The notes under the pieces: model-generated
Seen by the model: only the letters and a program-made list of their open reading frames with translations
Told to the model about the DNA's origin: nothing
Database searches by the model: none
Translations under genes and position numbers: made by a program
Shown here: piece by piece, positions 2,637 through 25,581 of the stretch
Numbering within the stretch: position 1 is the stretch's first letter
How the letters are laid out: each line of letters starts with the position of its first letter
NCBI GenBank assembly: GCA_040326155.1
Contig: JBEQLE010000046.1
Location: 1-33,290 of the forward strand
Source: Leptospirales bacterium
Lineage (GTDB): Bacteria; Spirochaetota; Leptospiria; Turneriellales; JAOUFE01
Length of the DNA stretch: 33,290 nucleotides
Reading direction: 5' to 3'

Positions 2637-2707
2637 ATATCGTATTGGGTGACCAAGTCAGGGAAAAGGGGTACATTCGCGCACCAAAGAATTCCGGCTT
2701 TTCCCCT
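2637..2707 (+). repeat. Dispersed two-hairpin repeat, copy R1 (short form)
   Basis: ATATCGTATTGGGTGAC-CA-AGTCAGGGAAAAG...CTTTTCCCCT. Matches 10133, 14479 and 16011 but lacks their 20-nt GAA-loop insert. Confidence 0.85.
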
Positions 2708-2713
2708 CGTACT

Positions 2714-2965
2714 CTAATGGTTCGTATGCGTTTTGGCGTCTTTTAAGAGCGACTTGTCGATACTCCAAATGGTTACGGTATCTATTTTCGGATATTTTTT
2801 GACTAAAGCCAAAATTACCTGGTAATCGCGCGACGCCCCTAAAATAGTATTTCGAAAGCGCTGGTAATCTTTGTTACTCGTAAAACCCATATTAGCAGCG
2901 GCATTTTTTAAGAATCTGTATTCTAACTTGATTGCCGATTTTAATTTTTCTGGTGTATCTAACAT
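2714..2965 (-). CDS. Small putative DNA-binding protein (Ner/Cro-like HTH)
   Basis: 83 aa with RBS CAGGAG upstream. The pattern TPEKLKSAIK...LKNAAANMG...FRNTILG...TIWS loosely resembles Mu Ner-type repressors. Divergent from two XRE HTH genes. Confidence 0.55.
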   Translation of the reverse strand: MLDTPEKLKSAIKLEYRFLKNAAANMGFTSNKDYQRFRNTILGASRDYQVILALVKKYPKIDTVTIWSIDKSLLKDAKTHTNH

Positions 2966-3184
2966 AATGTATCTCCTGAAGAAAATTTATAAGTTATAGT
3001 AAAAAATTTAATTTGTAATTCTTTAAACAATACATATTTACAGACATATTTCAGCAATAAAATTACTGTTCCTTATATGAACTATTTGAGATATTGGTTA
3101 CAGCAAAGGAACATTTACGGTTTGATATTTAAGCCTACGAATTAGGCTAAACAAATTAGACAATAATATTTTACTAAACAATAT

Positions 3185-3556
3185 GTGCTTATGATAAAAT
3201 TAAACAAAACTGTTTTACAACGTTTCGAATCGGTTATTAAAAACAGTGGTTTGAATAAAAAAGAGTTCGCTGCGACAATTGGTTTAGCGCCTGCCTCTTT
3301 ATCTGAATTAACAAGCGGACGAACCAAGGCATTTTCGAATCCAGTCTTGAAAGCTATGGCAGCCGTGCATGGTGTAAACATAAACTGGCTAACAACCGGA
3401 AAGGAAGAACCTTACACTTCGTCGAATGCAATGGCTTCCACTTTTGAGTTTGACTTATTGTACAAATATCGAAGATTTACGACAATAAATAAAGATACAT
3501 TTGGAATATTCTACGAAACATTACTGAGACTACAAGAAGAGAAAGAAAAGGGGTAA
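3185..3556 (+). CDS. XRE/cI-like helix-turn-helix transcriptional regulator
   Basis: GLNKKEFAATIGLAPASLSELTSGRT HTH and VNINWLTTGK motif. No S24 peptidase domain. True start may be the ATG at 3191. Confidence 0.85.
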   Translation: MLMIKLNKTVLQRFESVIKNSGLNKKEFAATIGLAPASLSELTSGRTKAFSNPVLKAMAAVHGVNINWLTTGKEEPYTSSNAMASTFEFDLLYKYRRFTTINKDTFGIFYETLLRLQEEKEKG

Positions 3557-3558
3557 AT

Positions 3559-3951
3559 ATGCAACTAAACCAAGAAATACTTGACAGATTGGAAAAAGTT
3601 TTAACAGAAAATAATTTGAACAAAAGACAATTTGCCCTCTCGATTGGCGCCCAGACTTCGGGCATATCCGAGGTTTTTAATGGAAATATAGGTTCGCTTT
3701 CGGGAACAACCGTTAAAATTTTAGAAGTAATATATGGAATTAATCCTATATGGCTTGAAACCGGTTCGGGTAAACAGTACAAAAGTACAATCGTTACAAT
3801 GGATGAGGAGGAGAGCCAAATGATCGCCAAAACCAGAAAATTAACGAAAGAGAATAAAGTTCTGTTAAAAGCTTTGATCGATACTCTATGGCTCAAGCAA
3901 TGTACAGATATCAAGAAAATGAAGCGAGCGGCAAAAAGATCTAAAAAATAA
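3559..3951 (+). CDS. XRE/cI-like helix-turn-helix transcriptional regulator (paralog of upstream gene)
   Basis: NLNKRQFALSIGAQTSGISEVFNG HTH and INPIWLETGSG motif. Aligns end to end with 3185..3556. Confidence 0.85.
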   Translation: MQLNQEILDRLEKVLTENNLNKRQFALSIGAQTSGISEVFNGNIGSLSGTTVKILEVIYGINPIWLETGSGKQYKSTIVTMDEEESQMIAKTRKLTKENKVLLKALIDTLWLKQCTDIKKMKRAAKRSKK

Positions 3952-3962
3952 CCAAGCTTTAA

Positions 3963-4016
3963 AGGGTGGCAGTCGCCCCCCTCGCTCCGGCCGCCGGGCG
4001 TCCTCCGCTACCCCCC
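3963..4016 (-). repeat. Diverged two-hairpin repeat, copy R5
   Basis: Reverse strand reads GGGGGGTAGC-GGAGGACGC-CCG-GCGGCCG-GAGCGAGGGGGGCGACTGCCACCCT. Its core equals the R2 insert GGAGGACGC-GAA-GCGGCCG except for the loop, and its flanks match 25531-25581. Confidence 0.7.
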
Positions 4017-4198
4017 ACGTTCTCTTTTTCACATGGCTTCCTGTTTAAAGTTTTGTTGGGGGTAGAAGATTACGTGTGAATGTAGTTGATTGCCATATAG
4101 TCTAAGGCATTATTGCACGAGATTACTTTTTATCTTTACAAAGGGCTAACTTGGTAAAAATATTATCAATTTTATGGAAAATTCATTATATTGAACCG

Positions 4199-4963
4199 AT
4201 GCAGGATAAATTCTACACGGATCAAATCGGGATTAAGCGAAATAAAAACAAAGCAATTATTTACCCAATAAATACAAATACAAATACAAAGACAAAGACA
4301 AAGACAAAGACAAAGACAAATATACATCTTACCATTTCATGGAATAATAAAAGCAATAATTATGATTTACATTTAAAGAATGAAAAAACAAAACAGTATA
4401 TACCTTTAGCAGAATTTGCAGAATCTAATTACGATCTATTGATTGAGTGTCTACCTTCTATTTTCATCAAATATTGGAAAAACTATTATAGACCGGTTCG
4501 CATAGGCTGGCTGGGGCACCGAGGGTACAATATACAAATCTTTAAAAATCGTCTTAATGCTGACCTTGAAGAACACTTAGGAATCGATTTAGAAAGCAAG
4601 AATATCTATTTTGATATAAAAAAAATGAATCAATTTATTAAAGACAATATCAACGACTATGTGAATATTCTTGACCCAAAAGATATTACACCGTACAATA
4701 TTGATGTAAATGACCGACTACAAGCATTTAAGTATATTAATAATAAAAGGAAATCATTCGATTTATACCAGAGGCCATCTCAACATAATCCAGATAAACT
4801 TGTATTATTGAAAATTGATTCCCGTAAAGCAAGGCGATCATTTGACAGAATTATTGTTGAAATATCCAAAATATTACAAATAGATGTAGAAGGTGTTTTT
4901 AATGACCTTAACTCTCATATTGATTTAAATGAGATTTTCAACTTTGGCCAAAACGACACATAA
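4199..4963 (+). CDS. Hypothetical protein (cassette-like gene) containing an NT/KT dipeptide repeat
   Basis: ORF track 4151..4963 with ATG at 4199. Very AT-rich. The stop codon lies inside the ACATAAC end of an attC-like hairpin. Confidence 0.65.
   Translation: MQDKFYTDQIGIKRNKNKAIIYPINTNTNTKTKTKTKTKTNIHLTISWNNKSNNYDLHLKNEKTKQYIPLAEFAESNYDLLIECLPSIFIKYWKNYYRPVRIGWLGHRGYNIQIFKNRLNADLEEHLGIDLESKNIYFDIKKMNQFIKDNINDYVNILDPKDITPYNIDVNDRLQAFKYINNKRKSFDLYQRPSQHNPDKLVLLKIDSRKARRSFDRIIVEISKILQIDVEGVFNDLNSHIDLNEIFNFGQNDT
4270..4323 (+). repeat. In-frame hexamer tandem repeat (AAATAC)x3 (AAAGAC)x5 AAATAT
   Basis: Read directly. Encodes NTNTNTKTKTKTKTKTN. Confidence 0.95.
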
Positions 4964-5157
4964 CGAGTTTTAATTTCATCTGACGTTTCGAGACTACCGG
5001 AGTCAGCCAGGCTCGCACCAAACTAACCTCCCGTAGGCTTTGGCTATTTGCCAAAGAGTTTCGTGCGAGCTCTGGTGGATTAGGCAAGGCATCCCAAAAT
5101 ATGTTTGAGCGAAGCGAAACCCGAAGGCTCGCCTGAACAGATTAAAATTTGTTATCG
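4958..5157 (+). repeat. attC-like long imperfect palindrome (integron cassette recombination site-like)
   Basis: Begins ACATAAC and ends GTTATCG. TAACGAGTTTTAAT pairs with ATTAAAATTTGTTA. Inner stems are GCTCGCACCAAACT/AGTTTCGTGCGAGC (5011-5024/5057-5070) and CTTTGGC/GCCAAAG. At 200 bp it is longer than canonical attC sites. Confidence 0.6.
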
Positions 5158-5228
5158 GCAGTCAACGCCACACTAATAAATACAAGCTAGGTACGAGAAC
5201 AACTTGTTTAATCAAACCAACTGCACAA

Positions 5229-6659
5229 CTAGTCTTTTGACACAAATTCAACCACGAAATTGGTATCCGGGGGACATGCATAGTCACTACCTGCATCGCC
5301 GTAGGCAAAGCCATACACATTTTTGAATTGGCTGGAATTCTGTATGTTTGTATTATATGTAGAAGTGTTTGCGCCAATATCGCCGGGAGCCACATCGCAA
5401 CTGCCTGGTGTACTATATTGTCCAGTACAACAAAATTGATCTGCATTGCCAGTTCCGTTTAACTTTGCATAAGTACAGGGACTCATACATCCTTCAAACG
5501 CACCTTTTGTAGATGTTTTCGATAAAACCCAAGGTTTTGTAGGCCCTTTATAATTCAACGGTAATTGAGAACTGCTCGTGCACATAGTAGAGAGTGAAGT
5601 ATCACTTTTCGGCACTACCTGGGCTAATGAGTTTTTAGTGCTGTAATAACCAGCACCAAGAACATTTGAATTTTCAGGAGGCACGCTATACGTGCAATAC
5701 TCTGGCGAAGACGGATATAACCTAACACCCACATTATATCCATCAACAGCTGATATGTCAATGTTGCTTGAGCCCTTTGGAATACCAGTAATAACTTTCA
5801 AAATTGTAAACTCAATTTTGGTAGCGTAAGGACTCTGACCTGTAAAATACCCCCCCGTGCATACCCAATTAGCAGGGGGCTGAGGATTAGCTCCATTGCA
5901 TTGATCTACCGTTGGAGCTGTCTTGCACTCAGCCACAGACCCGGCTGTGCAATATGACGACAAATGAAAAGCTGCAGAATCTAATCCATTTAACCCCACT
6001 GTAACCACATAAGAGGAATTTTTTTGAATCGTGGCAACAATCGCTGTATTTTGGCAAGAAGGTGTGGAATTTTTACCATTACTTAAACTGCATGCTTCAC
6101 CAATCTGAATCACCGGATATGCTGTGTTATTCTCAAAGGTAATTGTACGATTACTATAACTTGTTTTTGTTGGATTAGTTGGTTTTTTTTTCACTGCTTT
6201 CCAAGCAGTGGTGCCAAACGCTACCGTATATACATTTGATGTGGCACCGTTTTGGGTCACTGGTGAATTGATCACAGCGCCAGGACAGGTGGTTGTGCTT
6301 GCAGCAACACTCCCTTTCGATAAAACAAATGTACAGCTGTACCACTGCTTGCTTTTTTGATAATAAAGATCATATGTTGCGTTCGTTACACCCGGTGTGT
6401 ACGACCCTGCAAAAACTTGCAAAGAAGTGTCCGGTATATATGCAACCTGTTTTTCATTTTGATAAATGTATATCGGGAGTGAAACACCGCTCCCCGGTAT
6501 TTGCCACATCAAAAAGGCACCTTTTGTCGGACTGGTTTCCGGTTCACACATAAAAACTGAACCCAAAAAAAGAAAACTCATCGGGAAAAATAATAGTTTT
6601 TTCAAATTCTTTTTGAAGAATATTGCATATAATTTGTTAGTCATCATAATAAGAGACAA
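5229..6659 (-). CDS. Thaumatin-like (PR-5 family) domain protein, probably exported or a lipoprotein
   Basis: Thaumatin signatures ITFENNT, TKIEFT, NIDISAVDGYNVGV, GCMSPC, FCCTGQY..PGSC and YGFAYGD...YACP..TNFVVEF. Cys-rich. N-terminal basic-then-hydrophobic stretch ends in Cys (FLFLGSVFMC). Exact start uncertain. Confidence 0.8.
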   Translation of the reverse strand: MSLIMMTNKLYAIFFKKNLKKLLFFPMSFLFLGSVFMCEPETSPTKGAFLMWQIPGSGVSLPIYIYQNEKQVAYIPDTSLQVFAGSYTPGVTNATYDLYYQKSKQWYSCTFVLSKGSVAASTTTCPGAVINSPVTQNGATSNVYTVAFGTTAWKAVKKKPTNPTKTSYSNRTITFENNTAYPVIQIGEACSLSNGKNSTPSCQNTAIVATIQKNSSYVVTVGLNGLDSAAFHLSSYCTAGSVAECKTAPTVDQCNGANPQPPANWVCTGGYFTGQSPYATKIEFTILKVITGIPKGSSNIDISAVDGYNVGVRLYPSSPEYCTYSVPPENSNVLGAGYYSTKNSLAQVVPKSDTSLSTMCTSSSQLPLNYKGPTKPWVLSKTSTKGAFEGCMSPCTYAKLNGTGNADQFCCTGQYSTPGSCDVAPGDIGANTSTYNTNIQNSSQFKNVYGFAYGDAGSDYACPPDTNFVVEFVSKD

Positions 6660-6822
6660 TGTAAATAACTAAATTGCCTGTCAAGCATATATCAAAATTA
6701 ATACGCCAAAATAAAATGCAATTTTATCACTTTTAATGTCTATAACGAATGGGTAAGCCTTCAAATTGTAATTGGCGCTTTTCAGCCAATTACAATTTGA
6801 CTTGCTTCTGTCTTTATCGGAA

Positions 6823-7014
6823 TTACTTATTGAGCAATTTCAGCAGCCCTATGAGATTCGCTTCGGTTATCTCGGTGTCGCCGATGGTAATCGTCCCCTT
6901 AACGGTAGCCGCTCCTTTGACCGTCAACCCAGCGTCGAATGTGACGCCGTGTGTGACCGACAGTGTCTGAGCTGATACTGATCCAACAGTTAAGTTTTTC
7001 AATGGTTCATTCAT
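6823..7014 (-). CDS. Small protein with short beta-strand repeats (spike/fibre-like)
   Basis: Strong RBS AAGGAG before the ATG. Periodic LTV/LSV/VTF/LTVKG/ATVKG/ITIG strands followed by an amphipathic helix. Confidence 0.6.
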   Translation of the reverse strand: MNEPLKNLTVGSVSAQTLSVTHGVTFDAGLTVKGAATVKGTITIGDTEITEANLIGLLKLLNK

Positions 7015-7450
7015 TAATTTCTCCTTATCAAGTGTAATTTAAAAAATTGCAATAACTTCAGCCCTCCCCAAGGAGTGAAAAGCGTTAAAAGTGTACTTCA
7101 ATAATTATAATGCTTAGAATGTAAGTTAATTTTTCACTCTATTTTCTACTTTGTCACCACCTATAATATTAAAGTATAGCCTTTCGTATATTAAGGAGTT
7201 ATCTAAAATTATATGGAAATACTATTTAATTCAATTATATTGTCAATAATTATTTTTTTGTCCTATGAGGCCACGATGGCCGAGTTTCTCGAATCTCTGC
7301 GTCTTTTGCCGATAACACTTTTTGTACGTTGTAAACCATATTTATATCCGTAAGTAAAACCTACCCGCACTGAATATTTCATTGCCCACAATTGGCAGGA
7401 AAATTGCTGGTGGGTAATTACCGGCCTAGTTTTTTACAGCGCAGTGAACT

Positions 7451-7696
7451 CTAACTCGCCGTTTCAGCGACATTTTCGTGGCCGATGTTTTCGAATTGCA
7501 AGATCATGTATTTAACTTTATCTTCTTTGTGTCTTTTTAAACCGGTTTGTGTATTGATGACCTGTCCTTCTTTAGTTACAAGACGCAACGAGAAATTTTC
7601 CCCTGTAGAAAAACCCAATAAAACCTTCATACCTTTTACGGCCAAACCGGCGACATCGCTATTATGTATAAAGGGTAGGCCTTTTTCGTTTAACAT
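7451..7696 (-). pseudogene. Truncated PAS-domain paralog (C-terminal part only)
   Basis: KGMKVLLGF...RLVTKEGQVI...YMILQFENI aligns with the final PAS domains of the two upstream genes (KNGIKILTGL...FIIMQFDNI and KNAIKVVLGF...YLVLQLDNI). The N-terminal PAS strands are missing. Confidence 0.6.
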
Positions 7697-7741
7697 TTCT
7701 TCTTTTCTATAAAGTCTTACGTATACACCTAACCAAGTACC

Positions 7742-8503
7742 TTACTTAACGGCTTCAACTTCTGCGTAGTCGGTAATATTGTCAAATTGCATAATGATGA
7801 AAGCAGAGCCGCCTTCTTTTCGTTTGCTCAAGGTTAAATCTGCCTCGATGAAATTACCATCTTTCTTTGAAAAACGTATATTTGCTGTATTCTTTGTTTG
7901 CAAACCAGTTAAAATTTTTATTCCATTTTTAAGCATCAATTTAAAATCGCCAGAATATACAATATCCGCTCCTCGTAATTTCATCATTTCATTATCGTTA
8001 TCGTTATAACCAAAAGCCTGAGAACATTTTTTATTTGCATAGACAAAACCGCCAAGTGGTTTACCAACAAGAATGGCGCTTGAGTTATCCTTTTCAATTG
8101 CGACGACGAGTTTAGCAATATTTGGATCTTTCTGCTTTTTGGCTGTTTCACCAATAATAGTAATATTTTCAAGTTGTATAACAGTCAAAGCCATACCGGA
8201 TTTATCGCGGTTACCTGTAATTGTCAAACCCGCTTTAATAATTTTACCATCTTTGCGAAGCAAACGAGCTTCCGTAGAAATATTTTTATTTGGCGTAGTA
8301 AAAATATCGACAATCGCTTCTGCAATGGAATGAACATCATCAGCGTGAATAAGTTCACTTTGTTTTATACCTAATAGTTCATCATTTTCATAGCCAAGAG
8401 TTTGAGAAATAAATTCATTGGCAAAACACATATTAGTAATATTTCGGTAAATAATAATACCACTTGCATCCTGATTCGTTAAACCCGCTAATATCTTCTC
8501 CAT
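7742..8503 (-). CDS. PAS-domain-only protein (2 PAS domains)
   Basis: FANEFISQTLGYENDELLG...LIHADD...RLLRKDG and YANKKCSQAFGY...RFSKKDG. No kinase, GGDEF or HTH output. Confidence 0.85.
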   Translation of the reverse strand: MEKILAGLTNQDASGIIIYRNITNMCFANEFISQTLGYENDELLGIKQSELIHADDVHSIAEAIVDIFTTPNKNISTEARLLRKDGKIIKAGLTITGNRDKSGMALTVIQLENITIIGETAKKQKDPNIAKLVVAIEKDNSSAILVGKPLGGFVYANKKCSQAFGYNDNDNEMMKLRGADIVYSGDFKLMLKNGIKILTGLQTKNTANIRFSKKDGNFIEADLTLSKRKEGGSAFIIMQFDNITDYAEVEAVK

Positions 8504-8512
8504 GATCTTTCT

Positions 8513-10042
8513 CTAATTCGTAGTTTCTAGGATTTCTTTTTGAACGATGTTATCGAGTTGCAAAACAAGATAGGATCTTTTGGATTTTTTATCTTTATAT
8601 TTTGTTTCTATGTGGTCGGCTTCAATTATACCGCCATCTTTGCGGATGTAACAGCCCTTAAACTTTGCTTTTTTTGTGAAACCAAGTACAACTTTTATGG
8701 CATTTTTCTTCATTGTAGAAAAATCATTTGGGTGTATAAGGTCGATAGCTTCTATGTTATTCAACTCAACCTGGTTGTAACCAATGTTTTCTTGCATATA
8801 GGAGTTTGCATAAATGTAACCATGGTCACCTATTTTCGCAATCAGAATTCCAGTTGTTTTCGATAGGTCATAAGTAGACAATATTTCATGGATATTATGT
8901 TCTTTTATTTTTTTTACACTTTCATCTAAAACCACAATGTTACTTATTAAGAAAACGCCTAGATAGTTACCATCTTCATCTCTACGATTAGTCACCTCGA
9001 CATTGGCTTCAATAACCTCGCCCCCTTTGCTCATAAATCTACTCTTACTTGTGAATTTATCATTTACTTTATCAAAAACACTTGCCAAACCTTCACTTAC
9101 TGTATCAAAATCTTCAGGATGATAAATATTGGTTAAATGCATCTTTTCGAATTCCTCATTCGTATAACCAAAGGCGTTTTGTAAAACTTCGTTAGTAAAT
9201 CGAATACCTGCACCAATTTTGTAGATAAGAATTCCATCCAAATCCTGTTTCGTTAAACCCGCCAATATCTTTTCCATGATCTTTCTCTCCTCTTTAAGTT
9301 TAGTTATTAATTGTAAATATTCATTTATACTGTAAACGAACATGATTACAGTGTCAATGTTATTTTCGTCTTTAAAGCGACTTACTTTTACTTTGACGGG
9401 TATAATGTCGCCGCTTTTGGTTTTATGGAAATTGTTAAACAGGGAATTTTCGGGGATATCGCCTTTTTTACCCATGGCCAGGTCAAAATAATTCATGGTT
9501 TTTAACTTTTTCTGGCTGTAACCCGAAAGTTTGGCGTAGGCTTCGTTTGTATCTTGTATTTTTCCATCGGTGGCTAGCAATAAATAACCGTCGGGTGAAG
9601 TTTCTACAATGGTTTTATATTGGTCTTTTCGGTTCTCTATTTTGTTTTCGATTGTTTTACGCAAGGTGATGTCGCGATAATCCATAAGAACTTCGCCAAC
9701 ATTATCGTAACGGCCCAGAAAATGGCAAGAGACTTCTACGGTAATCTCTTCTTTATTCTGTTTGTAGAGTTTGGTTTCAAAGGTGGCTCTATTGAATTCG
9801 GGGGTTAGCTCCCAAAATTTATCGTAGGCTTTTGTGGCGGCGCCGGGAGGCGTAAAGTCGAGAATCGGTTTTTGAATCAGGTCTTCTTTGTCGTAACCTA
9901 AATAACGAAGGGTATTCTCATTTACATCCTGTATATTACCTTTCTTGTTCAATAAAATTCCGCAATCTTTTATAGATTCAAACAGAGCATTATAAATATT
10001 ATTTTCAGCCTCTTCATCGTGTCCATCACTGTCTAATTTCAT
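8513..10042 (-). CDS. PAS-domain-only protein (4 PAS domains)
   Basis: Four S-box motifs: VNENTLRYLGYDKEDL, TNEAYAKLSGYS, TNEVLQNAFGYTNEE..YHPED and ANSYMQENIGYNQVEL..IHPND. No output domain. Confidence 0.85.
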   Translation of the reverse strand: MKLDSDGHDEEAENNIYNALFESIKDCGILLNKKGNIQDVNENTLRYLGYDKEDLIQKPILDFTPPGAATKAYDKFWELTPEFNRATFETKLYKQNKEEITVEVSCHFLGRYDNVGEVLMDYRDITLRKTIENKIENRKDQYKTIVETSPDGYLLLATDGKIQDTNEAYAKLSGYSQKKLKTMNYFDLAMGKKGDIPENSLFNNFHKTKSGDIIPVKVKVSRFKDENNIDTVIMFVYSINEYLQLITKLKEERKIMEKILAGLTKQDLDGILIYKIGAGIRFTNEVLQNAFGYTNEEFEKMHLTNIYHPEDFDTVSEGLASVFDKVNDKFTSKSRFMSKGGEVIEANVEVTNRRDEDGNYLGVFLISNIVVLDESVKKIKEHNIHEILSTYDLSKTTGILIAKIGDHGYIYANSYMQENIGYNQVELNNIEAIDLIHPNDFSTMKKNAIKVVLGFTKKAKFKGCYIRKDGGIIEADHIETKYKDKKSKRSYLVLQLDNIVQKEILETTN

Positions 10043-10132
10043 TTGTCACCACCATATTTAAGATATAAAATGAACTATTTTAATCTTTCGTTGTAAGTCA
10101 AGTTTATTTTATAAAATTAATTACGAAGATTG

Positions 10133-10227
10133 AATTAATATCGTATTGGGTGACGGAGGACGCGAAGCGGCCGCAGTCAGGGAAAAGGGGTTAATTCGCG
10201 TGGAATAAAATTCCGGCTTTTCCCCCT
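10133..10227 (+). repeat. Dispersed two-hairpin repeat, copy R2
   Basis: AATTAATATCGTATTGGGTGACGGAGGACGCGAAGCGGCCGCAGTCAGGGAAAAG...CTTTTCCCCCT. Confidence 0.9.
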
Positions 10228-10441
10228 GCCCCTATGTCGAAGTATTTACCGCTTTTGTCGGGAAAAACAGATTCCACCAAGTCTGTAATTCCATTTTTTT
10301 CTTTGTCATATAACCCAGCCAGGTTGGTAGCACTGTTTTGATAATATTTTTGCGTTAATTCATCCACGGGGTGGTTTTCCACATCAACTCGAAAACACAT
10401 TTTCCTTACTGGAAGGTCATCGCAAAGTGAATTTTAGCGCT
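10224..10441 (-). pseudogene. Truncated second copy of the 5' end and upstream region of the methyltransferase-HNH gene
   Basis: Aligns to 2339..2557, with 12 substitutions in the 159 coding bp. Breaks right after DIGAG at the edge of repeat R2. Confidence 0.9.
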
Positions 10442-10495
10442 TCCATTGTACGCCTTAATGGCTTCCCCCCAATTAGAAACTGATCTCTTTTCCCT

Positions 10496-10948
10496 TTAAT
10501 AATCTGATACATTGAATTTACCATCTTTAAAATCTATCAATATTTTGTTGGTTCTAATTCCGTATACCCTGGTCCATTCTGGGGGAATAGGCTGATCGGT
10601 GCCGTTGTAGTTCGCGATGTGCATATATATTTCAGGGGCGCCATCTCTGTCATAATCTTTAATAAAAAAATTATCAGGTTGACTCAGGTCAAATATAATG
10701 TAGCCTCCATCCATATCAAAAGGAAATTTTACCACAGTGTTTGATAAACTTAAATGCACACTGATGGTGTAGCAACAATGGGCTCCGCCTGAAAATGAAT
10801 ACATTATCTTATCTATATTTTGATCACCATCGAAATCAAATTTTTCCATCCATACGACACTGGTAGTTATATCCAAGTCCCTTTCACAACTGCAACGATC
10901 GCAAAAGCTTATTACGATTAGCAACATAAAAAATATTTTAATCCGCAT
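10496..10948 (-). CDS. Exported hypothetical protein with SGGAHCC motif and DxDGD loops
   Basis: Signal or lipoprotein-like N-terminus. DFDGDQNIDKI, FSGGAHCCY and DYDRDGAPEI (FG-GAP/VCBS-like calcium loops). Confidence 0.7.
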   Translation of the reverse strand: MRIKIFFMLLIVISFCDRCSCERDLDITTSVVWMEKFDFDGDQNIDKIMYSFSGGAHCCYTISVHLSLSNTVVKFPFDMDGGYIIFDLSQPDNFFIKDYDRDGAPEIYMHIANYNGTDQPIPPEWTRVYGIRTNKILIDFKDGKFNVSDY

Positions 10949-10951
10949 AAT

Positions 10952-11719: not shown

Positions 11720-11824
11720 ATAACTCTTTTAAGCAAATATTCTCATATTTTTAACCATTCGATAACTCTGCAATAATTTTATTGAATTCGGATACTCTTT
11801 TTTCTTAATCCAATCAGAAAGTTT

Positions 11825-12001
11825 TCTTTTCCCTTGAATAATCTGATACATTGAATTTGCCATCTTTAAAATCTATCAATATTTTGTTGGTTCTAATTCC
11901 GTATACCCTGTTCCATTCCGGGGGATAGGCTGATCGGTACCGTTGTAGTTCACTATGTGCATATATATTTCAGGGGCGCCATCTCTGTCATAATCTTTAA
12001 T
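11825..12001 (-). pseudogene. Frameshifted duplicate of the 3' end of 10496..10948
   Basis: Aligns with 10486..10663, showing 7 substitutions and a 1-bp deletion. The stop TAA is TCA here. Confidence 0.9.
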
Positions 12002-12631: not shown

Positions 12632-12658
12632 TTGTACTCATTTTGTCATATTACAATA

Positions 12659-14299: not shown

Positions 14300-14428
14300 C
14301 AATTACTGCCTATTGTATATTTTAATACACCAAAAAATTGCGTCTTTAACAAACGAATTTATTATCTATAGCTTAATATACAAAATATATCAGAACGTCA
14401 ATCGAATCTTGTAAAACAGTTCCAAATA

Positions 14429-14466
14429 ACGAATTACGAATTAATAATATTCAATTCGTAATTCGT
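14429..14466. repeat. Perfect 14-bp inverted repeat built from TTACGAA/TTCGTAA heptamers
   Basis: ACGAATTACGAATT-N10-AATTCGTAATTCGT, with a further CTTCGTAATTAAT at 14473-14485. Confidence 0.85.
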
Positions 14467-14478: not shown

Positions 14479-14572
14479 AATTAATATCGTATTGGGTGAC
14501 GAAGGACGCTAAGCGGCCGCAGTCAGGGAAAAGAGTTGAATTCGCGCCCAATTAAGTACAGACTTTTCCCCT
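14479..14572 (+). repeat. Dispersed two-hairpin repeat, copy R3
   Basis: AATTAATATCGTATTGGGTGACGAAGGACGCTAAGCGGCCGCAGTCAGGGAAAAG...CTTTTCCCCT. Confidence 0.9.
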
Positions 14573-14623
14573 TAAATATGTAAAATGAACCAGACTCCCC
14601 TTCCCCCAACTGCAAATCTCGAT

Positions 14624-15901
14624 TTATTTTTTCTTAGCTTCTTTCTTAGCCTCTCTCTCGGCTTTTTTCAACATTCGAATAATAATACGATAAAAATCCG
14701 GAACATAATATTTACGTTCCAAGCGACCTTTGGAACCATCAATTGCAATATCTAAAGCTGTCTTTCCTTCTTTATTTCGAATAGACAGTTGTGCGCCGGA
14801 TTTTAGTAAAATGGAAACCATCTTAATATTTCCATAACTCGCTGCTATATGCAAAGCTGTGTTTCCTTCGGGGGTGGTCATATCCCGATCAATATTGTTT
14901 TCAAGCAGCAATTTGGCAGCATCAGGCTCAGCACGAATCGTAGACAAGTGCAACGCGCTATAACCTTCCCGGGTAAGTTTATTCACATCAGTACCACTTT
15001 TCAAAATTTCTGCCAGCAGGTGAGGACTCTCACTAAGCCTTAAATTCGGATACAATGCACCCGGTTTAACCAAAGTCGTTGGAGAATACGCCGGAGTGTC
15101 ATACTCTTTTAGTAATTTATGAGCCCGGTCCAGAATTGTCTTTAACGTTCCGTCCATATACCTTCTTTGTACAAACGATACCATCCTTTGATTATCAAGA
15201 CTATCTTTGTCCAAACCTGCATTCACAACCTGCATTATATCGGCAGCCCAATAAATTTCCCTAAAACCCCCATGTGAACTTTCAGTGGCAAATAATTTTT
15301 TATATTTTTCCAGAGTCTCAGTATTCGTAGCTACCGAGCCAAGTATATAAAGATATTTTCTCAAATATTCGCGAAAAGAAATATTATAAACAAGCTGGGC
15401 ATTCATACCCATAAATGAATACTGCGGGGGAATATATAGTTTATCGAACAATAATCCGATTGCCTTCTCATTATATTGAACCAGGCTTGTTTCCATATTT
15501 TTCACAAGCGGCTGGCCGGTCAATTTGCGAACAGTCTCACTGAAATCCTGCAAACCTTCATGAGATTGTCCATACAAGTTTATTCGAATTGGTAGTTCGT
15601 CTTCTATTATTTTGTCATAATTTTTTTCATATGCATAAGATATTACTTCGCTCAAAAAAACAAAAATATTATATAGTTGGTTGTCTTCGCTAAAAACGGG
15701 AATTTTTTTTCCTTTATATGGACCGGATGGTATTTCTGACCAATCCGACTCGATGTACCAACGTTGTGATTCTAATTCAACGGGACGAGAAATATAACTT
15801 ACATACAGTTGTTCGGCAATAAACACTTTAGCCGCCCATGCGCCTGCCCCTCCCAGGAAAAGCAAAGCCAAAACTGACACAATTATTATTTGTTTTTTCA
15901 T
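14624..15901 (-). CDS. Exported ankyrin-repeat protein
   Basis: Signal peptide ending AWA. C-terminal ankyrin repeats EGYSALHLS, EGNTALHIAASYGNIKMVSILLKSGA and EGKTALDIA. N-terminal ~270 aa unrecognised. Confidence 0.85.
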   Translation of the reverse strand: MKKQIIIVSVLALLFLGGAGAWAAKVFIAEQLYVSYISRPVELESQRWYIESDWSEIPSGPYKGKKIPVFSEDNQLYNIFVFLSEVISYAYEKNYDKIIEDELPIRINLYGQSHEGLQDFSETVRKLTGQPLVKNMETSLVQYNEKAIGLLFDKLYIPPQYSFMGMNAQLVYNISFREYLRKYLYILGSVATNTETLEKYKKLFATESSHGGFREIYWAADIMQVVNAGLDKDSLDNQRMVSFVQRRYMDGTLKTILDRAHKLLKEYDTPAYSPTTLVKPGALYPNLRLSESPHLLAEILKSGTDVNKLTREGYSALHLSTIRAEPDAAKLLLENNIDRDMTTPEGNTALHIAASYGNIKMVSILLKSGAQLSIRNKEGKTALDIAIDGSKGRLERKYYVPDFYRIIIRMLKKAEREAKKEAKKK

Positions 15902-16010
15902 ATGGTGGTAATATTCTAACCAAATTCCAATTTTACAAGTAATTTAATTTATGAATATACAATTGCTTGGCCATAAAAACTATAATCGCCCCACCCAAAA
16001 CCCACCTGTT

Positions 16011-16082
16011 ACGAAGGACGCGAAGCGGCCGCAGTCAGGGAAAAGGGTTAAATTCGCGCCCAATTAAGTTCATGCTTTTCCC
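16011..16082 (+). repeat. Dispersed two-hairpin repeat, copy R4 (5'-truncated)
   Basis: ACGAAGGACGCGAAGCGGCCGCAGTCAGGGAAAAG..AATTCGCGCCCAATTAAGT..CTTTTCCC. Confidence 0.9.
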
Positions 16083-16495: not shown

Positions 16496-16501
16496 CGGAT
16501 G

Positions 16502-16573
16502 CGTCCCCTAGGGGAATTGAACCCCTGTTGCGGGAATGAAAATCCCGAGTCCTAACCACTAGACGAAGGGGAC
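16502..16573 (-). tRNA. trnE: tRNA-Glu (anticodon TTC)
   Basis: GTCCCCTTCGTCTAGTGGTTAGGACTCGGGATTTTCATTCCCGCAACAGGGGTTCAATTCCCCTAGGGGACG folds as a cloverleaf. CCA not encoded. Confidence 0.95.
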
Positions 16574-16646
16574 ATAATCCGTGGATAAATAATCATATTT
16601 ATCTACGATGTCAACTCATTTCGAGTTTAAGTCGCTAAGCGACTTT

Positions 16647-16719
16647 TGAGGCGTCCGGGGCTCGAACCCGGGACCCATTGCTTAAAAGGCAATTGCTCTA
16701 CCAGCTGAGCTAACACCTC
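16647..16719 (-). tRNA. trnK: tRNA-Lys (anticodon TTT)
   Basis: GAGGTGTTAGCTCAGCTGGTAGAGCAATTGCCTTTTAAGCAATGGGTCCCGGGTTCGAGCCCCGGACGCCTCA folds as a cloverleaf. CCA not encoded. Confidence 0.95.
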
Positions 16720-16905
16720 GTATGTTATTGATACACTATATAAATATAGTTTATCTACCACCTTGAGGTTTGAAACTCAATATTTGCATATTGCGCTCTA
16801 CCATCGAAATCCACTTTGTGGTTTATCCAATTCTTGCTTTTTGGATGCTTCGTCAAGTTAAATACTATTCTAAGGCTAAAAAAAAATCTTGATAATGGCC
16901 CTACT

Positions 16906-17985: not shown

Positions 17986-17988
17986 CGC

Positions 17989-19215: not shown

Positions 19216-19227
19216 TGCCTATCCTTA

Positions 19228-20910: not shown

Positions 20911-20912
20911 AA

Positions 20913-22736
20913 TTAACGTTCAGTATTTATTTTCTCAAACTCTTTCTCTTGCCGCTGCACAGACTCGTTTGTAAAATCATCGGCGACTTGCCTGTTCGTT
21001 AAAACATGGGGAGTAATAAAAACTAGAAGATTCGTTTTATTAATAACTGTACCTGTTCTTTTGAAAAGATAGCCTAAAATTGGAATATCACCCAAAATTG
21101 GAATTTTACGTTCGGTTTTTGTTTTACGAGTAGATACAAGCCCACCGATTACAATCGTTTGCCCGTCAGCAACACGAACTGAGGTTTTAATATCGCGTTT
21201 GGTAAACGTGGGGTTTAGAGTTGTGTCTTCAGGAACAATCGCCGACTTTACTTCCTGGTACAAATCGAGCGTTACCATACCATTTTTGTTTATGTGCGGA
21301 GTAAATTTGACCTTTACACCTACAGATTTATATTCATATGTAAAATAATCAACCTGATCATTCGAACCGCCTGAAACACGATTACCCGAAATAATGGGAA
21401 TATCTTCACCGACGTTAATTTCGGCTTCCTGGTTATCAAGGGTCAATATCTGTGGCGCCGAAATAATGGCAAAATTTTCATTGTCCACGTTAGCTTCAAT
21501 TAACCCGCCTAGTCCAAGACCATTAGAATTACCCGTTAAAAAACCCAGTGAAAAACCATCGAGACTATTAATACTTAATACATCAGGACTACCTTTGGTG
21601 ATGCCGATTCCACTTTTTTTTACGGTTCCGGTTGAAAACTGGCCGCTGCTACCGTTAGTTTGTACACGCCAGTCAATACCAAATGAATTGGAATCGTTTT
21701 GCGCTACCTCAATAATTAATACTTCGAGCAAAACCTGGTCTCTGGGAATGTCAATTTGCTTAATTAAATCGGATATTGGTTTAAACTCTGCATAAGTTCC
21801 AATAAATATAATACTGTTTGATTCTTTATGCGCAATTACTTCTATCGTTGAAGTTTGGCTGCCCCGGTTTGCCGGAGTTCTAGGTTGTCTCGCCTGTGGT
21901 GTTCGCTCATTTGGCTTTTTTTTAGTTTCTGGAGTCTCCACGGTTTTTTCTGGTAACCGGACCCGTCGCAGTGTTTGTTCCAGTTTTTCGGCTTGCAGAT
22001 TTTGCAGCCTGTAAATATGAACATTTTCAGAATGTGGCTTCGATTCATCATCATCATCTTCGCGCTTGGGGTCTAGCTCATTTACAATTTCTAGAATACG
22101 ATTTATTTCATCTGCTTCACCTGTCATGATCATTGTACCGACTTCGTCGTAATCAACTATATTCAGGTTGGGACTACTAATTCGTTTTAATATGCCCGCC
22201 AGGCGTGAGGGTTTATGATTATTTAAAGTTAATACATGCGTTATTACTTTGTTGTCTTTTAAAAGCTGTTCATCAATTTCTCCACGACCAATTAATATAA
22301 CATCGCCTTTTGCTGCGGCGTCTTTCATCGGTACTACTTTGAGTAAAATACCATCATCAATTATAGCAAAGCCTTTAATGGCAAGTACACTGGTCAGGTA
22401 AGCATAGGCATCGCAAACCGAAATCTTATTCGGAGATATTACAGTAATTTTCCCTTTCACCCGATCGTCAGTAATAATATTTCGTCCAATCGTCTTGGAC
22501 ATGGCTTTTAAAAAATCCTGGATATCTTTATCGCGAAAATCAACCCTGAATTTCCTGTTACAGGAGGGCCCTAGAGTAGTTTTCTTTACACGGGTATCAG
22601 ACTTCTTTTCAAGCTTGCCCGTCGTTCCACCTGTTGTATTTTGAGCGATAAGCGGGAAAAAAAAGGCGCCCATTAATAAACTGATTGTAACTACAAATGA
22701 TGATGTTCTCGAATAACTGTTTTTTTGTTTTTTCAT
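20913..22736 (-). CDS. gspD: Type II secretion system secretin D
   Basis: N0 domain VDFRDKDIQDFLK...VKGKITV and secretin core QVLLEVLIIEV, PQILTLDNQEAEINVG, DGQTIVIGGL, KIPILGDIPILGYLFK. Confidence 0.93.
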   Translation of the reverse strand: MKKQKNSYSRTSSFVVTISLLMGAFFFPLIAQNTTGGTTGKLEKKSDTRVKKTTLGPSCNRKFRVDFRDKDIQDFLKAMSKTIGRNIITDDRVKGKITVISPNKISVCDAYAYLTSVLAIKGFAIIDDGILLKVVPMKDAAAKGDVILIGRGEIDEQLLKDNKVITHVLTLNNHKPSRLAGILKRISSPNLNIVDYDEVGTMIMTGEADEINRILEIVNELDPKREDDDDESKPHSENVHIYRLQNLQAEKLEQTLRRVRLPEKTVETPETKKKPNERTPQARQPRTPANRGSQTSTIEVIAHKESNSIIFIGTYAEFKPISDLIKQIDIPRDQVLLEVLIIEVAQNDSNSFGIDWRVQTNGSSGQFSTGTVKKSGIGITKGSPDVLSINSLDGFSLGFLTGNSNGLGLGGLIEANVDNENFAIISAPQILTLDNQEAEINVGEDIPIISGNRVSGGSNDQVDYFTYEYKSVGVKVKFTPHINKNGMVTLDLYQEVKSAIVPEDTTLNPTFTKRDIKTSVRVADGQTIVIGGLVSTRKTKTERKIPILGDIPILGYLFKRTGTVINKTNLLVFITPHVLTNRQVADDFTNESVQRQEKEFEKINTER

Positions 22737-22900
22737 TTTTATTTCTTCTTTTTTTATATTTCACCCCATTTTCCAATTATTGTACCAACAGACAAGAAAT
22801 AAAACTTCATTTTCAATATAAATATCTATTTTGTACCCACTCTATTATTTTTTCATTGACAGTCTGTCTTATTATGTCGTTTTGAACGCACTCACAATCT

Positions 22901-22974
22901 GGGGCAGTAGTTCAGCTGGTTAGAGCACTTGCCTGTCACGCAAGAAGTCGCGGGTTCGAATCCCGTCTGCCCCG
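22901..22974 (+). tRNA. trnD: tRNA-Asp (anticodon GTC)
   Basis: GGGGCAGTAGTTCAGCTGGTTAGAGCACTTGCCTGTCACGCAAGAAGTCGCGGGTTCGAATCCCGTCTGCCCCG cloverleaf with G73. Confidence 0.96.
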
Positions 22975-23062
22975 ATTTTTCTTTAAACTATAATCCAAAT
23001 CTACTATAGACTTACCCGCGTTTTAGAATAAAAACTTTAAACAAAGGTACCTGAATACAACT

Positions 23063-23193
23063 CAAGAAGTCGTGGGTTCGCACCCATTCATTTCACATAA
23101 ATACTAGCCAATAAAAGCTTCCACAGGAGAATACTCTGTTGAAGTCTGGGTCTTCGCGAACAACGTGAGCGAGCTATCCCGTCTGCCCCGATT
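23063..23193 (+). repeat. Duplicate of the tRNA-Asp 3' half, split in the T-loop by a 95-bp insert (att-like scar)
   Basis: CAAGAAGTCGTGGGTTCG (23063-23080, 17/18 identical to 22941-22958) and ATCCCGTCTGCCCCGATT (23176-23193, identical to 22960-22977). Confidence 0.85.
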
Positions 23194-23203
23194 AATTTAA
23201 GTG

Positions 23204-23611
23204 TTAGTTGATTATTATTATAACTGAGCTTAATGCAATAGAAAAGCAGAGAGGAATATATATAAAATTATCGTATTTTGCAAAATCAGTTTTGTTCACT
23301 CTTTTGAATACTCCGACATATTTAAATTCACCAATTACTCGGGCAAAGAATACCGGGCCAATAATATAATATAAATATCTCTGTAAAAAGATGAGGTCTA
23401 TTTTATAGATATCAATTATTACGAGAAGTGATCCGATTACAAATATAATTGCTATAAAAATAGTTCCCCCAAATTCTGCCTTAAAAAGAGGCCCTTTTTC
23501 ATTTTCTGGAATGGCAACCTTTATCCCTTTTGTTCCCCCTGATGCCCAATAAATATGGATGCAACCAATAAGTGCGAATACCATTACCATGTAAATTTTT
23601 AAAATTATCAT
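23204..23611 (-). CDS. DUF3995-like membrane protein
   Basis: IHIYWASGG..G...AIP, RVIGEFKYVGVFKR...TDFAKYD..IYIPLC, four TM segments. Confidence 0.75.
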   Translation of the reverse strand: MIILKIYMVMVFALIGCIHIYWASGGTKGIKVAIPENEKGPLFKAEFGGTIFIAIIFVIGSLLVIIDIYKIDLIFLQRYLYYIIGPVFFARVIGEFKYVGVFKRVNKTDFAKYDNFIYIPLCFSIALSSVIIIIN

Positions 23612-24189
23612 TTTATTTCCTCCATTAAATACGGTTGTAATATATTTTTCAATATGAGTACACTTTCTTTAACCCTTTTTCGGTTTATTGCTTTGCCCTC
23701 TGTTTCTAAATAGGAGACCCAATATAGCGAAAAAAACCATATTGTACGAGCCAAAGAATAAATTTCTGAATGATTTAAAGTTCGAAAAATACGGGCCTTT
23801 GAATATTGATGAATAAAAGCCTGAATTTCTTTTAACCGCTTTTTTTGCACTATTTCAAATATAGCTTTAAACTCAGCAATCTGTTTATACAAAGACGAAA
23901 CTTCTCTGTGTATAAATCGATACTCCCATAAATATTCAAAAGTTCTTTCATACATATAGTATAAATTTTTAAGGTTTGGCTCCTGTGGTATGGGCGTTTG
24001 ATCCCATTTTGCAATCATACGTTTAAAAAGTGATAGAATGATTTCCTCTTTGCTCCGGAAGTGGTAATATAGATTACCGGGACTAATTGATAACTCCTCG
24101 CATATATAATTAGTGGTGATCACTGACGTCCCTTTTTCATTAAATAACTTTAAAGCGATTAAAAGTATTTTTTCTTTATTATCTTTCAT
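23608..24189 (-). CDS. TetR/AcrR family transcriptional regulator
   Basis: KEKILLIALKLFNEKG...ISPGNLYYHFRSKEEI HTH. Confidence 0.93.
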   Translation of the reverse strand: MKDNKEKILLIALKLFNEKGTSVITTNYICEELSISPGNLYYHFRSKEEIILSLFKRMIAKWDQTPIPQEPNLKNLYYMYERTFEYLWEYRFIHREVSSLYKQIAEFKAIFEIVQKKRLKEIQAFIHQYSKARIFRTLNHSEIYSLARTIWFFSLYWVSYLETEGKAINRKRVKESVLILKNILQPYLMEEIK

Positions 24190-24206
24190 GGTCTGTTACG
24201 ATCTTA

Positions 24207-24506
24207 TCACAATTTTTTTGCGTCAATATATGTCATGCCGCCGATCACTCTCATGTCAGTTTTAAATCCAATTTTTTCTATCACGTTTTTTATTTCTTTT
24301 GATTTTAAGCAGCTTGCTACAAGTTTATTTTTGTATAATATTTTCAAATATATCTCACTAATTTTACGATCGGTACATAAACAGCTTATGTGCAAATCTC
24401 CCCCTACTTTTAATATTCGATAAAATTCTTGCAACAGATTTTCTGGATCTTTTACCACATGCAATATACCAAAACTTATTATTCCTTCTTTGAATATCTC
24501 TTGCAT
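24207..24506 (-). pseudogene. Internally deleted class I methyltransferase (C-terminal half)
   Basis: ISFGILHVVKDPENLLQEFYRILKVGG motif with no SAM-binding motif I. RBS GAAAGGA is retained before the ATG. Confidence 0.7.
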
Positions 24507-24531
24507 CGAATTAAATTCCTTTCAGCAGTTA

Positions 24532-24584
24532 TGGAGTATTTACTCTAGAACAAACCAATATTAGAGTGATTACTCTATTTGTAA
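24532..24584 (-). promoter_or_regulatory. Two palindromic operator-like sites overlapping a putative promoter of the TetR operon
   Basis: TGGAGTATTTACTCTA (24532-24547) and TAGAGTGATTACTCTA (24562-24577). The second lies between a minus-strand TTTACA and TAATAT/AATATT. Confidence 0.65.
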
Positions 24585-24814
24585 ATACTTTTTTAAATTT
24601 AAATCCAGGTGCAGGCACTTCGCATAGCAGACTTTGATCTGCCAATTGGCCGGGGCCAACTCTCGTGCGCGGTTGCCGTGGTTAATTTAAAAAGGGGAGC
24701 GGAGGATTTTCTTGTTTTCTGGAATCCTGAGCTTTGCGAAGCGTTTAAAATTGCAAAAAACGCTGTAGCGGGGGGAAAATGGAATCTCGGGGTTGAGAAT
24801 ATACCTGCTAGATT

Positions 24815-25435
24815 TTATTTTTTTAATATTTTACCTTTCCAGGTGCGGTAAAAGTGTTTTAACGTATCGCCGCTACCTGGTTCGGCAGGATATTCATATC
24901 CAAAATACTCTATATCGACTTTGAATTTTTCGCGAATAATTTCAACTGTCTCAGGTGTATAATAACTGCTAAAATGGCTGTGGGGTTTAATATTCACATG
25001 TGGCAGGTCTTGCTCACAATTCAGGTTTACTTTTATTTTCGTCCAGTCTTCATGCAACGTTTCGAATTTTCCAATATAATCGACGATCACATTGCCCTTC
25101 GCATCAGTGAACCAATCGAGCTGATTTTTATGAGCTCTGGGGTACTGGCATGTGTCCGAACTGTTCTGAATCCAAGTTACAAAATCTTCAAAAGTCTCTT
25201 GTTTATGGACATTCTTTCGCTGATACAAGGAGACAGTACGGTCCCAAGGATTTCGTACAAAACCAAATTTATAATAACTGTTGAATACCGTCTCAGGAGT
25301 TTTTTCTTTAATTTGTAAAATATCAAGATGGGGAATTTCCGGTTCCCCCAGAATACGCCGAACACTAGTGCTAGCCGTCTTGGGAACCTCAATAAAAATA
25401 CATTTAAACTCGTCATTAACCATATGCTCTGACAA
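24815..25435 (-). CDS. Sulfotransferase family 2 domain protein
   Basis: 5'-PSB CIFIEVPKTASTSVR, 3'-PB FGFVRNPWDRTVSLY, VDYIGKFETLHEDW and DIEYFGYEY. Confidence 0.9.
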   Translation of the reverse strand: MSEHMVNDEFKCIFIEVPKTASTSVRRILGEPEIPHLDILQIKEKTPETVFNSYYKFGFVRNPWDRTVSLYQRKNVHKQETFEDFVTWIQNSSDTCQYPRAHKNQLDWFTDAKGNVIVDYIGKFETLHEDWTKIKVNLNCEQDLPHVNIKPHSHFSSYYTPETVEIIREKFKVDIEYFGYEYPAEPGSGDTLKHFYRTWKGKILKK

Positions 25436-25470
25436 AATCGTATTATTCTACGCCCGGTCAAGACGAATAA

Positions 25471-25581
25471 GAGGGGGGGCAATGGAAGGTAAGGGCTGCA
25501 CTAGCAGCCCCTAATATGGGAATGTTAACAAGCCCCCCTCGCTACGAATCTTTTTATTAAAAAGATTCGTAGCTACCCCCC
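25471..25581 (-). repeat. Diverged two-hairpin repeat, copy R6, with a perfect 15-bp stem
   Basis: GAGGGGGGGC...GCCCCCCTC outer stem with inner GGGCTGC/GCAGCCC, then GCTACGAATCTTTTT-ATT-AAAAAGATTCGTAGC, then TACCCCCC. Flanks GCCCCCCTCGCT and GCTACCCCCC are shared with 3975-4016. Confidence 0.7.

Follow-up and report, generated by a model that had tools for sequence, protein, structure and literature searches.

A lineage-wide repeat family of Leptospira-like spirochaetes with the sequence code of a proposed intrastrand DNA triplex

How can a short non-coding sequence keep one layout from copy to copy while its stems are being swapped? The question is raised by a stretch of 33,290 nucleotides from a Leptospirales bacterium (contig JBEQLE010000046.1; hereafter the window), which hosts six copies, R1 to R6, of an element that consists of GGGT, a first hairpin and a second stem running from AGGG to CCC. 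An initial annotation, made from the letters of the window, described this layout and proposed a structure-conserved, multi-copy, non-coding element with swappable stem-1 modules. The observation is confirmed, since covariance models recover all six copies and the layout holds; the interpretation is partly supported. What that annotation missed is the true size of the family, its presence across the phylum, and a mirror relation between the second stem and the single-stranded tail in front of the first hairpin. In this work we show that the element is a lineage-wide intergenic repeat family of Leptospira-like spirochaetes, whose amplification has brought it past 100 copies in the genome of the window, and we argue that the mirror relation follows the code of a purine-motif triple helix.

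Two covariance models were used: model R1, built from 23 copies, and model R2, for which 71 copies spanning all subfamilies were used (hereafter the 23-copy and the 71-copy model, to keep them apart from copies R1 and R2). The copies in the window and their parts are listed below.

2633-2709, plus strand: R1, a copy with a minimal stem 1 (covariance model E 1.9e-12); tail 2641-2649 (CGTATTGGG), stem 1a and triloop 2650-2660, stem 2 strands 2661-2668 and 2698-2705.
3958-4029, minus strand: R5, a 'mini' copy (genome-wide E 1.5e-5 with the 23-copy model and 7.3e-12 with the 71-copy model); G6 tail, stem 1 AGCG-GAG-...-GGA-GCGA, plain stem 2 GGGGGGC / GCCACCC, then TTTAAA.
10136-10227, plus strand: R2, a full copy (E 1.1e-18); tail and proposed third strand 10142-10150, stem 1 with its GNA/GNA loop 10151-10179, stem 2 purine strand 10180-10187 and pyrimidine strand 10217-10224.
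14482-14574, plus strand: R3, a full copy and the top match of the 23-copy model (96.2 bits); tail 14488-14496, stem 1 14497-14525, stem 2 strands 14526-14533 and 14563-14570.
16009-16082, plus strand: R4, a 5'-truncated copy that covers model positions 20-96 only.
About 25466-25592, minus strand: R6, a diverged copy (19.5 bits, E 0.0095 over 127 kb with the 23-copy model; 27.4 bits, E 9.4e-5 genome-wide with the 71-copy model); tail GTCGGGGGG, stem 1 with a 15-bp extension, stem 2 GGGGGGC...GCCCCCC around an inner hairpin.

R1, R2, R3 and R4 are homologous. They had been called near-identical and are in fact only similar: compared with R2 over 93 nt, R3 shows 86% identity and R4 70%, and the 51-nt stem-2 part shows 75-84% identity to the R1 copy. 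R4, rightly reported to have lost its GGGT, is cut inside stem 1a, and is without the tail and the 5' half of that stem. In reverse complement, R5 and R6 have the same layout as the plus-strand copies. The stem 2 of R5 is shared with two further copies, on contigs C94 and C132, and the 15-bp stem-1 core of R6 is also found in two other family members.

The consensus of the family runs through an A-rich lead, the tail, stem 1, a single A and stem 2. The tail is conserved and single-stranded, and reads (A)TCGTAT-Gn-T in the main subfamily. Stem 1 has a foot in which T-R-G-C is paired with G-C-Y/G-A, a symmetric internal loop of the form GNA/GNA (with both sides seen in 51/71 copies) and a distal helix that ranges from 0 to ~30 bp. 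Stem 2 opens with Gn-AAAG and closes with CTTT-Cn; it is either a plain hairpin, as in the 'mini' copies such as R5, or it holds an insert of 30-60 nt. A candidate third stem inside the stem-2 loop, with only 56.5% of its cells paired, was dropped from the models. The GCGAAGC mini-hairpin, which had been put forward as a feature of the family, is confined to R2, R4 and a small number of further copies.

Both stems co-vary well above shuffled controls. In the 23 copies, 87.8% of cells are paired against 74.0% when shuffled, none of 500 shuffles being as high, and 85 cells are changed on both sides against 31 in shuffles. In the 71 copies, where the alignment is fitted to the model, the corresponding values are 92.1% and 70.6%. 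The composition of the stems differs, with 95.5% purines (658/689) in the 5' strand of stem 2 and 48.5% in that of stem 1. The swapping of stem-1 modules is also borne out: an 18-nt core of stem 1b occurs on at least five different tail/stem-2 types, which indicates that modules are exchanged between copies while the tail and stem 2 stay matched. Every 'outside' occurrence of this core proved to be an unrecognised family member.

The size of the family depends on the search. Within the window's genome, BLAST finds 12 copies, an nhmmer profile 36 (E<1e-3), the 23-copy model 82 (E<=0.01) and the 71-copy model 117 (E<=1e-3, with no more than 150 candidates scored), and a motif scan assigns ~30 members to one subfamily alone. 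Three other genomes of the same family hold 55, 55 and 58 matches, while the remainder of the order has 1-3 matches in 5/30 genomes. In a sample of the phylum, matches are found in 17/140 other genomes, including 10/14 of one family of the same class; in the main, Leptospira-like genus of that family, 20/22 genomes carry 1-9 copies each. A contig scan with CGTAWKGGGTR...AGGGRAAA, a pattern that proved too degenerate, returned 118 loci in unrelated phyla: of 100 such loci put to the model, none was confirmed save one match of 17.6 bits. A literature search, mostly at the abstract level outside PMC4666352, did not find a description of the element, and the passages of PMC12306157 that it returned hold spirochaete genome lists only.

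One further genome, G038, has nine weak matches of 107 or 114 nt each on contig C1 (1093919-1126249 and 3427196-3430576). These matches, clustered within ~32 kb, may be another kind of repeated unit, with the stem-1/stem-2 core in common.

Why should the tail and stem 2 stay matched? Read backwards, the tail is a mirror of the 5' purine strand of stem 2. The lengths of the two G runs are equal (3/3, 4/4, 5/5 or 6/6) in 65 of the 84 copies that could be parsed, 16 of 100 sequences having failed the parser; in nine more, with 4/6 runs, two of the Gs are part of stem 1a, which accounts for the mismatch. The bases past the G run follow the rule G:G, A:A, T:A at 252/316 stem positions, compared with 57.1% +/- 2.1 for shuffled tails (maximum 64.2% in 1000) and 40-59% when the register is slid. 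In the 71-sequence model alignment the rule holds at 459/508 positions. For the five variable positions alone, 252/298 conform (84.6%), against 63.9% +/- 2.0 shuffled (maximum 70.5% in 2000), and the mutual information gathers along the mirror diagonal (0.48, 0.74, 0.60).

The conforming combinations of tail and stem are TATT~AAAA, TAT~AAA, AAAA~AAAA, GTGA~AGAG, GTGT~AGAG and TAGA~AGAA, each of which would need a coordinated change in the tail and in both strands of stem 2. The Leptospira-like genus provides independent examples, where GAGAA-G4 occurs with G4-AAG, and GAGAG-G5 with G5-AG/AA. Other partners for the tail were sought. Between the tail and the stem-2 loop there is no mutual-information diagonal and no covariation. 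An upstream C run able to pair with the tail is present in 34/107 copies, against 22% of random windows, and shows no length correlation with the tail's G run; in the Leptospira-like genus this C run is part of an extra upstream hairpin.

T is frequent in the tails opposite A-T pairs: (T,A,T) is seen 22 times and (A,A,T) 14 times at one position, and 36 against 8 times at another. Taken together, the triplets are G.G-C, A.A-T and T.A-T, and the third strand runs antiparallel to the purine one; this corresponds to the purine (reverse-Hoogsteen) triplex code. Holder et al. 2015 (PMC4666352) give the order third strand, purine, pyrimidine the name 'class I', and state that purine-motif triplexes cannot form in RNA. 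Because T is frequent in the tails, only the purine motif on the G-rich strand fits all of the subfamilies; a pyrimidine-motif triplex on the complementary strand is possible only where the tail is all purine.

Our best reading, to which we give about an even chance, is that of a triplex-plus-hairpin element of single-stranded DNA, of the kind of the BoxC repeats discussed at the end, with a new architecture. The G-rich strand would fold when it is single-stranded, its 5' tail lying antiparallel in the major groove of stem 2 and forming G.G-C, A.A-T and T.A-T triplets as a class I purine-motif intrastrand triplex. Stem 1 would be the connector of the third strand and the purine strand; it would probably stack on the triplex, and may serve as a protein-recognition module. 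Such a fold could form transiently in vivo, during replication, repair or transcription, and would itself be what selection preserves. As supposed for BoxC, PIT and TM_ECO, it would promote local rearrangement and module exchange rather than movement by an HUH transposase. We also propose, tentatively and with somewhat less than an even chance, that selection maintains an intramolecular DNA triple helix, that its tail, purine and pyrimidine strands co-evolve three-way across the phylum, and that the whole acts as a functional single-stranded DNA landmark at gene ends.

Several points weigh against this reading. The triplex is deduced from sequence alone, and because the copies are related, the shuffle controls overstate the significance: there are ~10-15 independent tail/stem-2 types. 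Some 10-20% of positions break the rule, and C stands opposite a C-G pair in 8/71 copies, which is not a standard triplet. Single-sequence DNA folds have z-scores of only -0.5 to -2.1 in five copies, and -6.5 in R6, relative to shuffles. Where the tail is purine-only, as in the Leptospira-like copies and in the TATAAAAGGGG subfamily, a pyrimidine-motif triplex would be possible on the complementary strand, and that motif is compatible with RNA. Furthermore, Holder et al. did not find an in-vivo footprint for their own motif (PMC4666352).

The main rival is a structured RNA: a small RNA, or a 3' untranslated region element that stabilises the transcript or ends transcription. Here the tail-to-stem-2 relation would be an RNA tertiary contact, or a pyrimidine-motif RNA triplex formed by the complementary strand. 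We consider it less likely than the triplex. In its favour, compensatory change is abundant in both stems, and stem 1 folds better on the G-rich strand than on the complement in 65 copies and worse in 13, a difference that also counts for the triplex reading.

The position of the copies speaks in part for the triplex and in part for an RNA. Of the 117 copies, 99 are intergenic (midpoint outside open reading frames of >=90 amino acids), although 86% of bases lie in open reading frames of >=100 amino acids; this is in line with the triplex repeats of Holder et al. In copies that are convergent with the downstream gene, the 3' end lies a median of 32 nt from the stop codon, and 41 of these 66 copies end <=60 nt from it, which counts for an RNA. 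R1, R3 and R5 are examples: R1 ends 5 nt off the stop of open reading frame 2714-2965 (minus strand), R5 lies 7 nt past the stop of 3559-3951 (plus strand) and R3 50 nt off the stop of 14624-15901 (minus strand). The orientation towards genes is nonetheless near-random in the window's genome, the downstream gene being on the opposite strand in 66 cases and on the same strand in 48 (P 0.11), and the upstream gene opposite in 49 and co-directional in 52, which tells against an RNA and agrees with the lack of strand bias in the repeats of Holder et al. Local GC skew shows no bias with orientation either (36 against 31). An intrinsic terminator would be a G+C-rich hairpin with a U tract behind it, in the direction of the upstream gene; TTT(A/T) follows stem 2 in many copies, but this U tract is not kept in the Leptospira-like copies.

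A further argument for an RNA comes from orthologous loci in the Leptospira-like genus. Ten genomes share one locus at which 5 nt separate the end of the element from the stop of ileS (isoleucyl-tRNA synthetase), encoded on the other strand.

L212, 1573-2979, and its nine orthologues L209, L226-L229 and L231-L234: ileS-adjacent loci.

Seven loci have a second site in common, where the distance to the stop codon of a pfkB-family kinase gene is 54 nt. At the ileS locus, the columns identical in all ten genomes number 51/62 in the element, 97/188 in the adjacent coding end and 11/140 upstream. An extra hairpin (TCCGGG...CCCGGA) precedes the tail in this genus, which gives a block of ~105 nt in all that begins 5 nt past the ileS stop and is more conserved than the adjacent coding sequence; pairwise homology within the genus often begins at the 5' edge of the element. 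This conservation argues for a function under purifying selection and keeps an RNA or a protein-site reading alive. Indeed, the near-invariance of the ileS copies fits an RNA or protein-binding role at least as well as it fits a DNA triplex, and is to be added to the points against the latter. The low upstream identity, on the other hand, argues against a conserved promoter, as judged from conservation alone.

Comparison with known RNAs also tells against this rival. At the gathering threshold of Rfam 15, only 3 tRNAs matched in the window. When 20 copies from the same genome were compared with Rfam 15 at E values up to 10, only chance hairpin matches were returned, all below gathering, and 7 loci from relatives gave 1 tRNA and nothing for the element. 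Finally, the tails that contain T fit only the purine motif, the one that RNA is stated by Holder et al. not to adopt (PMC4666352).

A two-state hairpin switch without any triplex is a very unlikely explanation. In such a switch two G runs would compete for one C run, and this alone would keep the run lengths equal; the equality of run lengths is the strongest single signal, and an energy model does pair the tail G run of R6 with the C run. However, competing G runs predict a tail that is complementary to the 3' flank, and this complementarity is absent, which disfavours the switch: the tail is complementary to the C run and 3' flank at 131/336 positions (39.0%) against 45.0% shuffled, whereas the mirror rule holds on the same copies at 238/290 (82.1%) against 60.6% shuffled. 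In the G3 subfamily the switch would need a G:C helix of only 3 bp around a loop of >60 nt, which is expected to be unstable, and it leaves unexplained why stem 2 has a 5' strand that is 95.5% purine.

The initial annotation leaned towards a REP/HUH-type system. The element would then be REP/REPIN-like or derived from IS200/IS605, its hairpins being substrates of a Y1 HUH transposase (RAYT/TnpA), or it would be an RNA partner of TnpB. It is true that the family is multi-copy, intergenic and hairpin-bearing, and that truncated copies and breakpoints occur. REP and REPIN sequences carry a conserved GTAG head on a 20-40-nt palindrome, and 28/71 copies read GGGTAGCG, the second pair in stem 1a being A over G, which yields GTAG at the foot of stem 1; overall, this position has A in 29/71 copies and G in 38/71, and the pair is G-C in 37/71. 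But the window's genome (94.7% complete) has 0 matches to the Y1 HUH transposase family PF01797 and 0 to TnpB PF07282, and since no Y1 HUH transposase accompanies the element, the REP/RAYT idea fails. Nor does PF01797 track the element across 41 genomes: it occurs in 1/4 genomes of the family, in 0/7 Leptospira-like genomes that carry the element, and in 12/14 of a genus for which no match to the element was obtained. No integrase or recombinase was found among the 31 open reading frames of the window. There are no inverted pairs of the REPIN type, only 5 pairs of neighbours being <2 kb from each other (560-1564 nt apart), and copies are stable at orthologous loci across species. This reading is thus already largely refuted, and we regard it as extremely improbable.

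Two further candidates can be set aside: the copies, judged by eye, lack the terminal core-site motif of an integron attC site and do not form one long imperfect hairpin, and the 3 IS110 genes of the window's genome are not flanked by halves of the element.

The copies had also been said to sit at breakpoints, and to drive the mosaicism of the region. The first of these statements stands. R2 adjoins a truncated copy of the 5' end of a methyltransferase-HNH gene (725-2497), which forms part of a duplicated fragment.

10224-10441, no strand assigned: duplicated fragment, 91-92% identical to 2339-2557.

The segment 2339-2557 is the 5' end and upstream region of that gene. The homology begins precisely with the closing C run of R2, and CCCTGC is shared. 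A second segmental duplication in the variable left part of the window relates 10486-10663 to 11825-12001 (95-96% identity). The truncation of R4 is of the same nature, as is a pair of copies on contigs C2 and C84: their 108-nt upstream flanks are 99% identical up to the tail, past which stem 1 differs and the downstream flanks are completely different. Across the genome, 13/117 copies lie <500 nt from a contig end, against 4.6 expected (P 7e-4). In the window, there are 6 copies in 33 kb, compared with a genome mean of 27 per Mb, and 5/6 are located within 1-16.4 kb, a part with almost no DNA match in three relatives; the tRNAs and type II secretion genes to the right of it do match. A comparison of filled and empty sites in two genomes of one genus, at ~67-70% DNA identity and with synteny lost on one side, gave no clean empty site. 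These results support an association with breakpoints; a driving role goes beyond that association.

Some observations on the neighbourhood of the copies may be of use to others. The gene upstream of the C2 copy (~7800-9220) closes with an Rhs/YD-type core (...YDPEIGRF...) and, behind it, a C-terminal part that varies, and ~10 paralogous fragments of it are found on contigs C147, C25, C56, C117, C62, C31, C77, C54, C42 and C103. Several copies adjoin very long open reading frames of 1400-2600 amino acids. A separate motif, GGTAATTACCCACC, is over-represented in the first 100 nt ahead of the copies (e.g. C126:6190, C167:430 and C4:10500), with its hexamers in 8-12 of 82 upstream flanks against 1-4 expected. 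On contig C83 of the window's genome (7653-7766, minus strand), two tandem 5'-only fragments stand 113 nt apart; each consists of the tail and the start of stem 1, without stem 2, and is preceded by the same 40-nt flank.

Within the window, a near-perfect palindrome (ACGAATTACGAATT ... AATTCGTAATTCGT) lies at 14420-14460, just upstream of R3, and its TCGTAATTCGTAATT words also precede an unrelated copy on contig C150. The open reading frame 4151-4963, which has no Pfam match, contains a tandem 12-nt unit at 4270-4317 (AAATAC/AAAGAC hexamers). Eukaryote-like domains are encoded in the variable regions 5229-6659, 14624-15901 and 24815-25435, namely thaumatin-family, ankyrin repeats and sulfotransferase.

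It has long been asked whether DNA triplexes arise in living cells, and whether they matter there. The present family, in which all three strands change in step in two or more separate lineages, is one of the rare cases in nature where comparing sequences speaks for a DNA triplex, and it makes this question testable. If selection does maintain the triplex, the family would provide the first proof from comparative genomics that such an intrastrand fold is important in vivo, and the landmark it forms could be, for example, a recognition site or a barrier in replication or transcription. The family is in any case an unannotated element that is kept beside housekeeping genes in Leptospira-like bacteria, and a marker for variable regions and assembly breaks in the window's genome. 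It also carries a warning, that triplex finders restricted to short loops miss elements of this type.

The closest parallel is provided by the BoxC, PIT and TM_ECO intrastrand triplex repeats (Hoyne et al. 2000, as reported in Holder et al. 2015, PMC4666352). The latter paper describes them as intergenic, without strand bias, linked to instability and variable flanks, and without a transposase, and reports that their triplexes form in vitro. The spirochaete family is similar in having three blocks on one strand (reverse-Hoogsteen, purine and pyrimidine), with G.G-C and A/T.A-T triplets, and in being multi-copy, intergenic, unbiased in strand, without transposase linkage and with variable flanks. 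It shares with the class the triplet rule and a homopurine tract in a Watson-Crick duplex, but not the short loops: its first loop is stem 1, of 11 nt in R1 and ~25-90 nt elsewhere. The same paper gives loops of 1-6 nt for ITxF and 0-10 nt for an earlier search (PMC4666352), and since the first loop is longer than 1-6 nt, ITxF would miss the spirochaete family.

The architecture differs too. TM_ECO is given there as class II, with the pattern CCCTCNCCC-loop-GGGNGAGGG-loop-GGGNGAGGG (PMC4666352), whereas the spirochaete family is class I, tail-Gn-T / stem 1 / A-Gn-AAAG...CTTT-Cn. Its sequence is different and richer in A/T, it is found in another phylum, and it has a conserved hairpin of 11-90 nt as its first loop and a second loop that may carry an insert of 30-60 nt. 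Support for the triplex also differs in kind, with three-way covariation here and only high identity in BoxC, PIT and TM_ECO; these, the sole triplex repeats of bacteria to have been studied well, are too uniform in sequence for comparison to test their fold. The spirochaete family therefore resembles these repeats on paper, and is not a member of them.

Other systems are further away. Like REP, BIME and REPIN sequences, the copies are short, structured, intergenic repeats at gene ends, numerous and in some cases located at rearrangement junctions. Unlike those that go with a RAYT, they have two hairpins and a single-stranded tail, no RAYT was found and no inverted pairs occur; deep conservation at orthologous loci is another difference. 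With H-DNA the family shares the mirror relation and the purine-motif chemistry, but here the purine tract makes its Watson-Crick pairs with an inverted repeat further downstream on its own strand rather than with the complementary strand, and in most copies the tail is not homopurine. The triple helices of ENE/MALAT1 and riboswitch RNAs, which use the parallel U.A-U / C+.G-C motif, likewise have a terminal strand that is clamped in the major groove of a hairpin. The code and polarity of the spirochaete family, in contrast, are those of the antiparallel purine motif.

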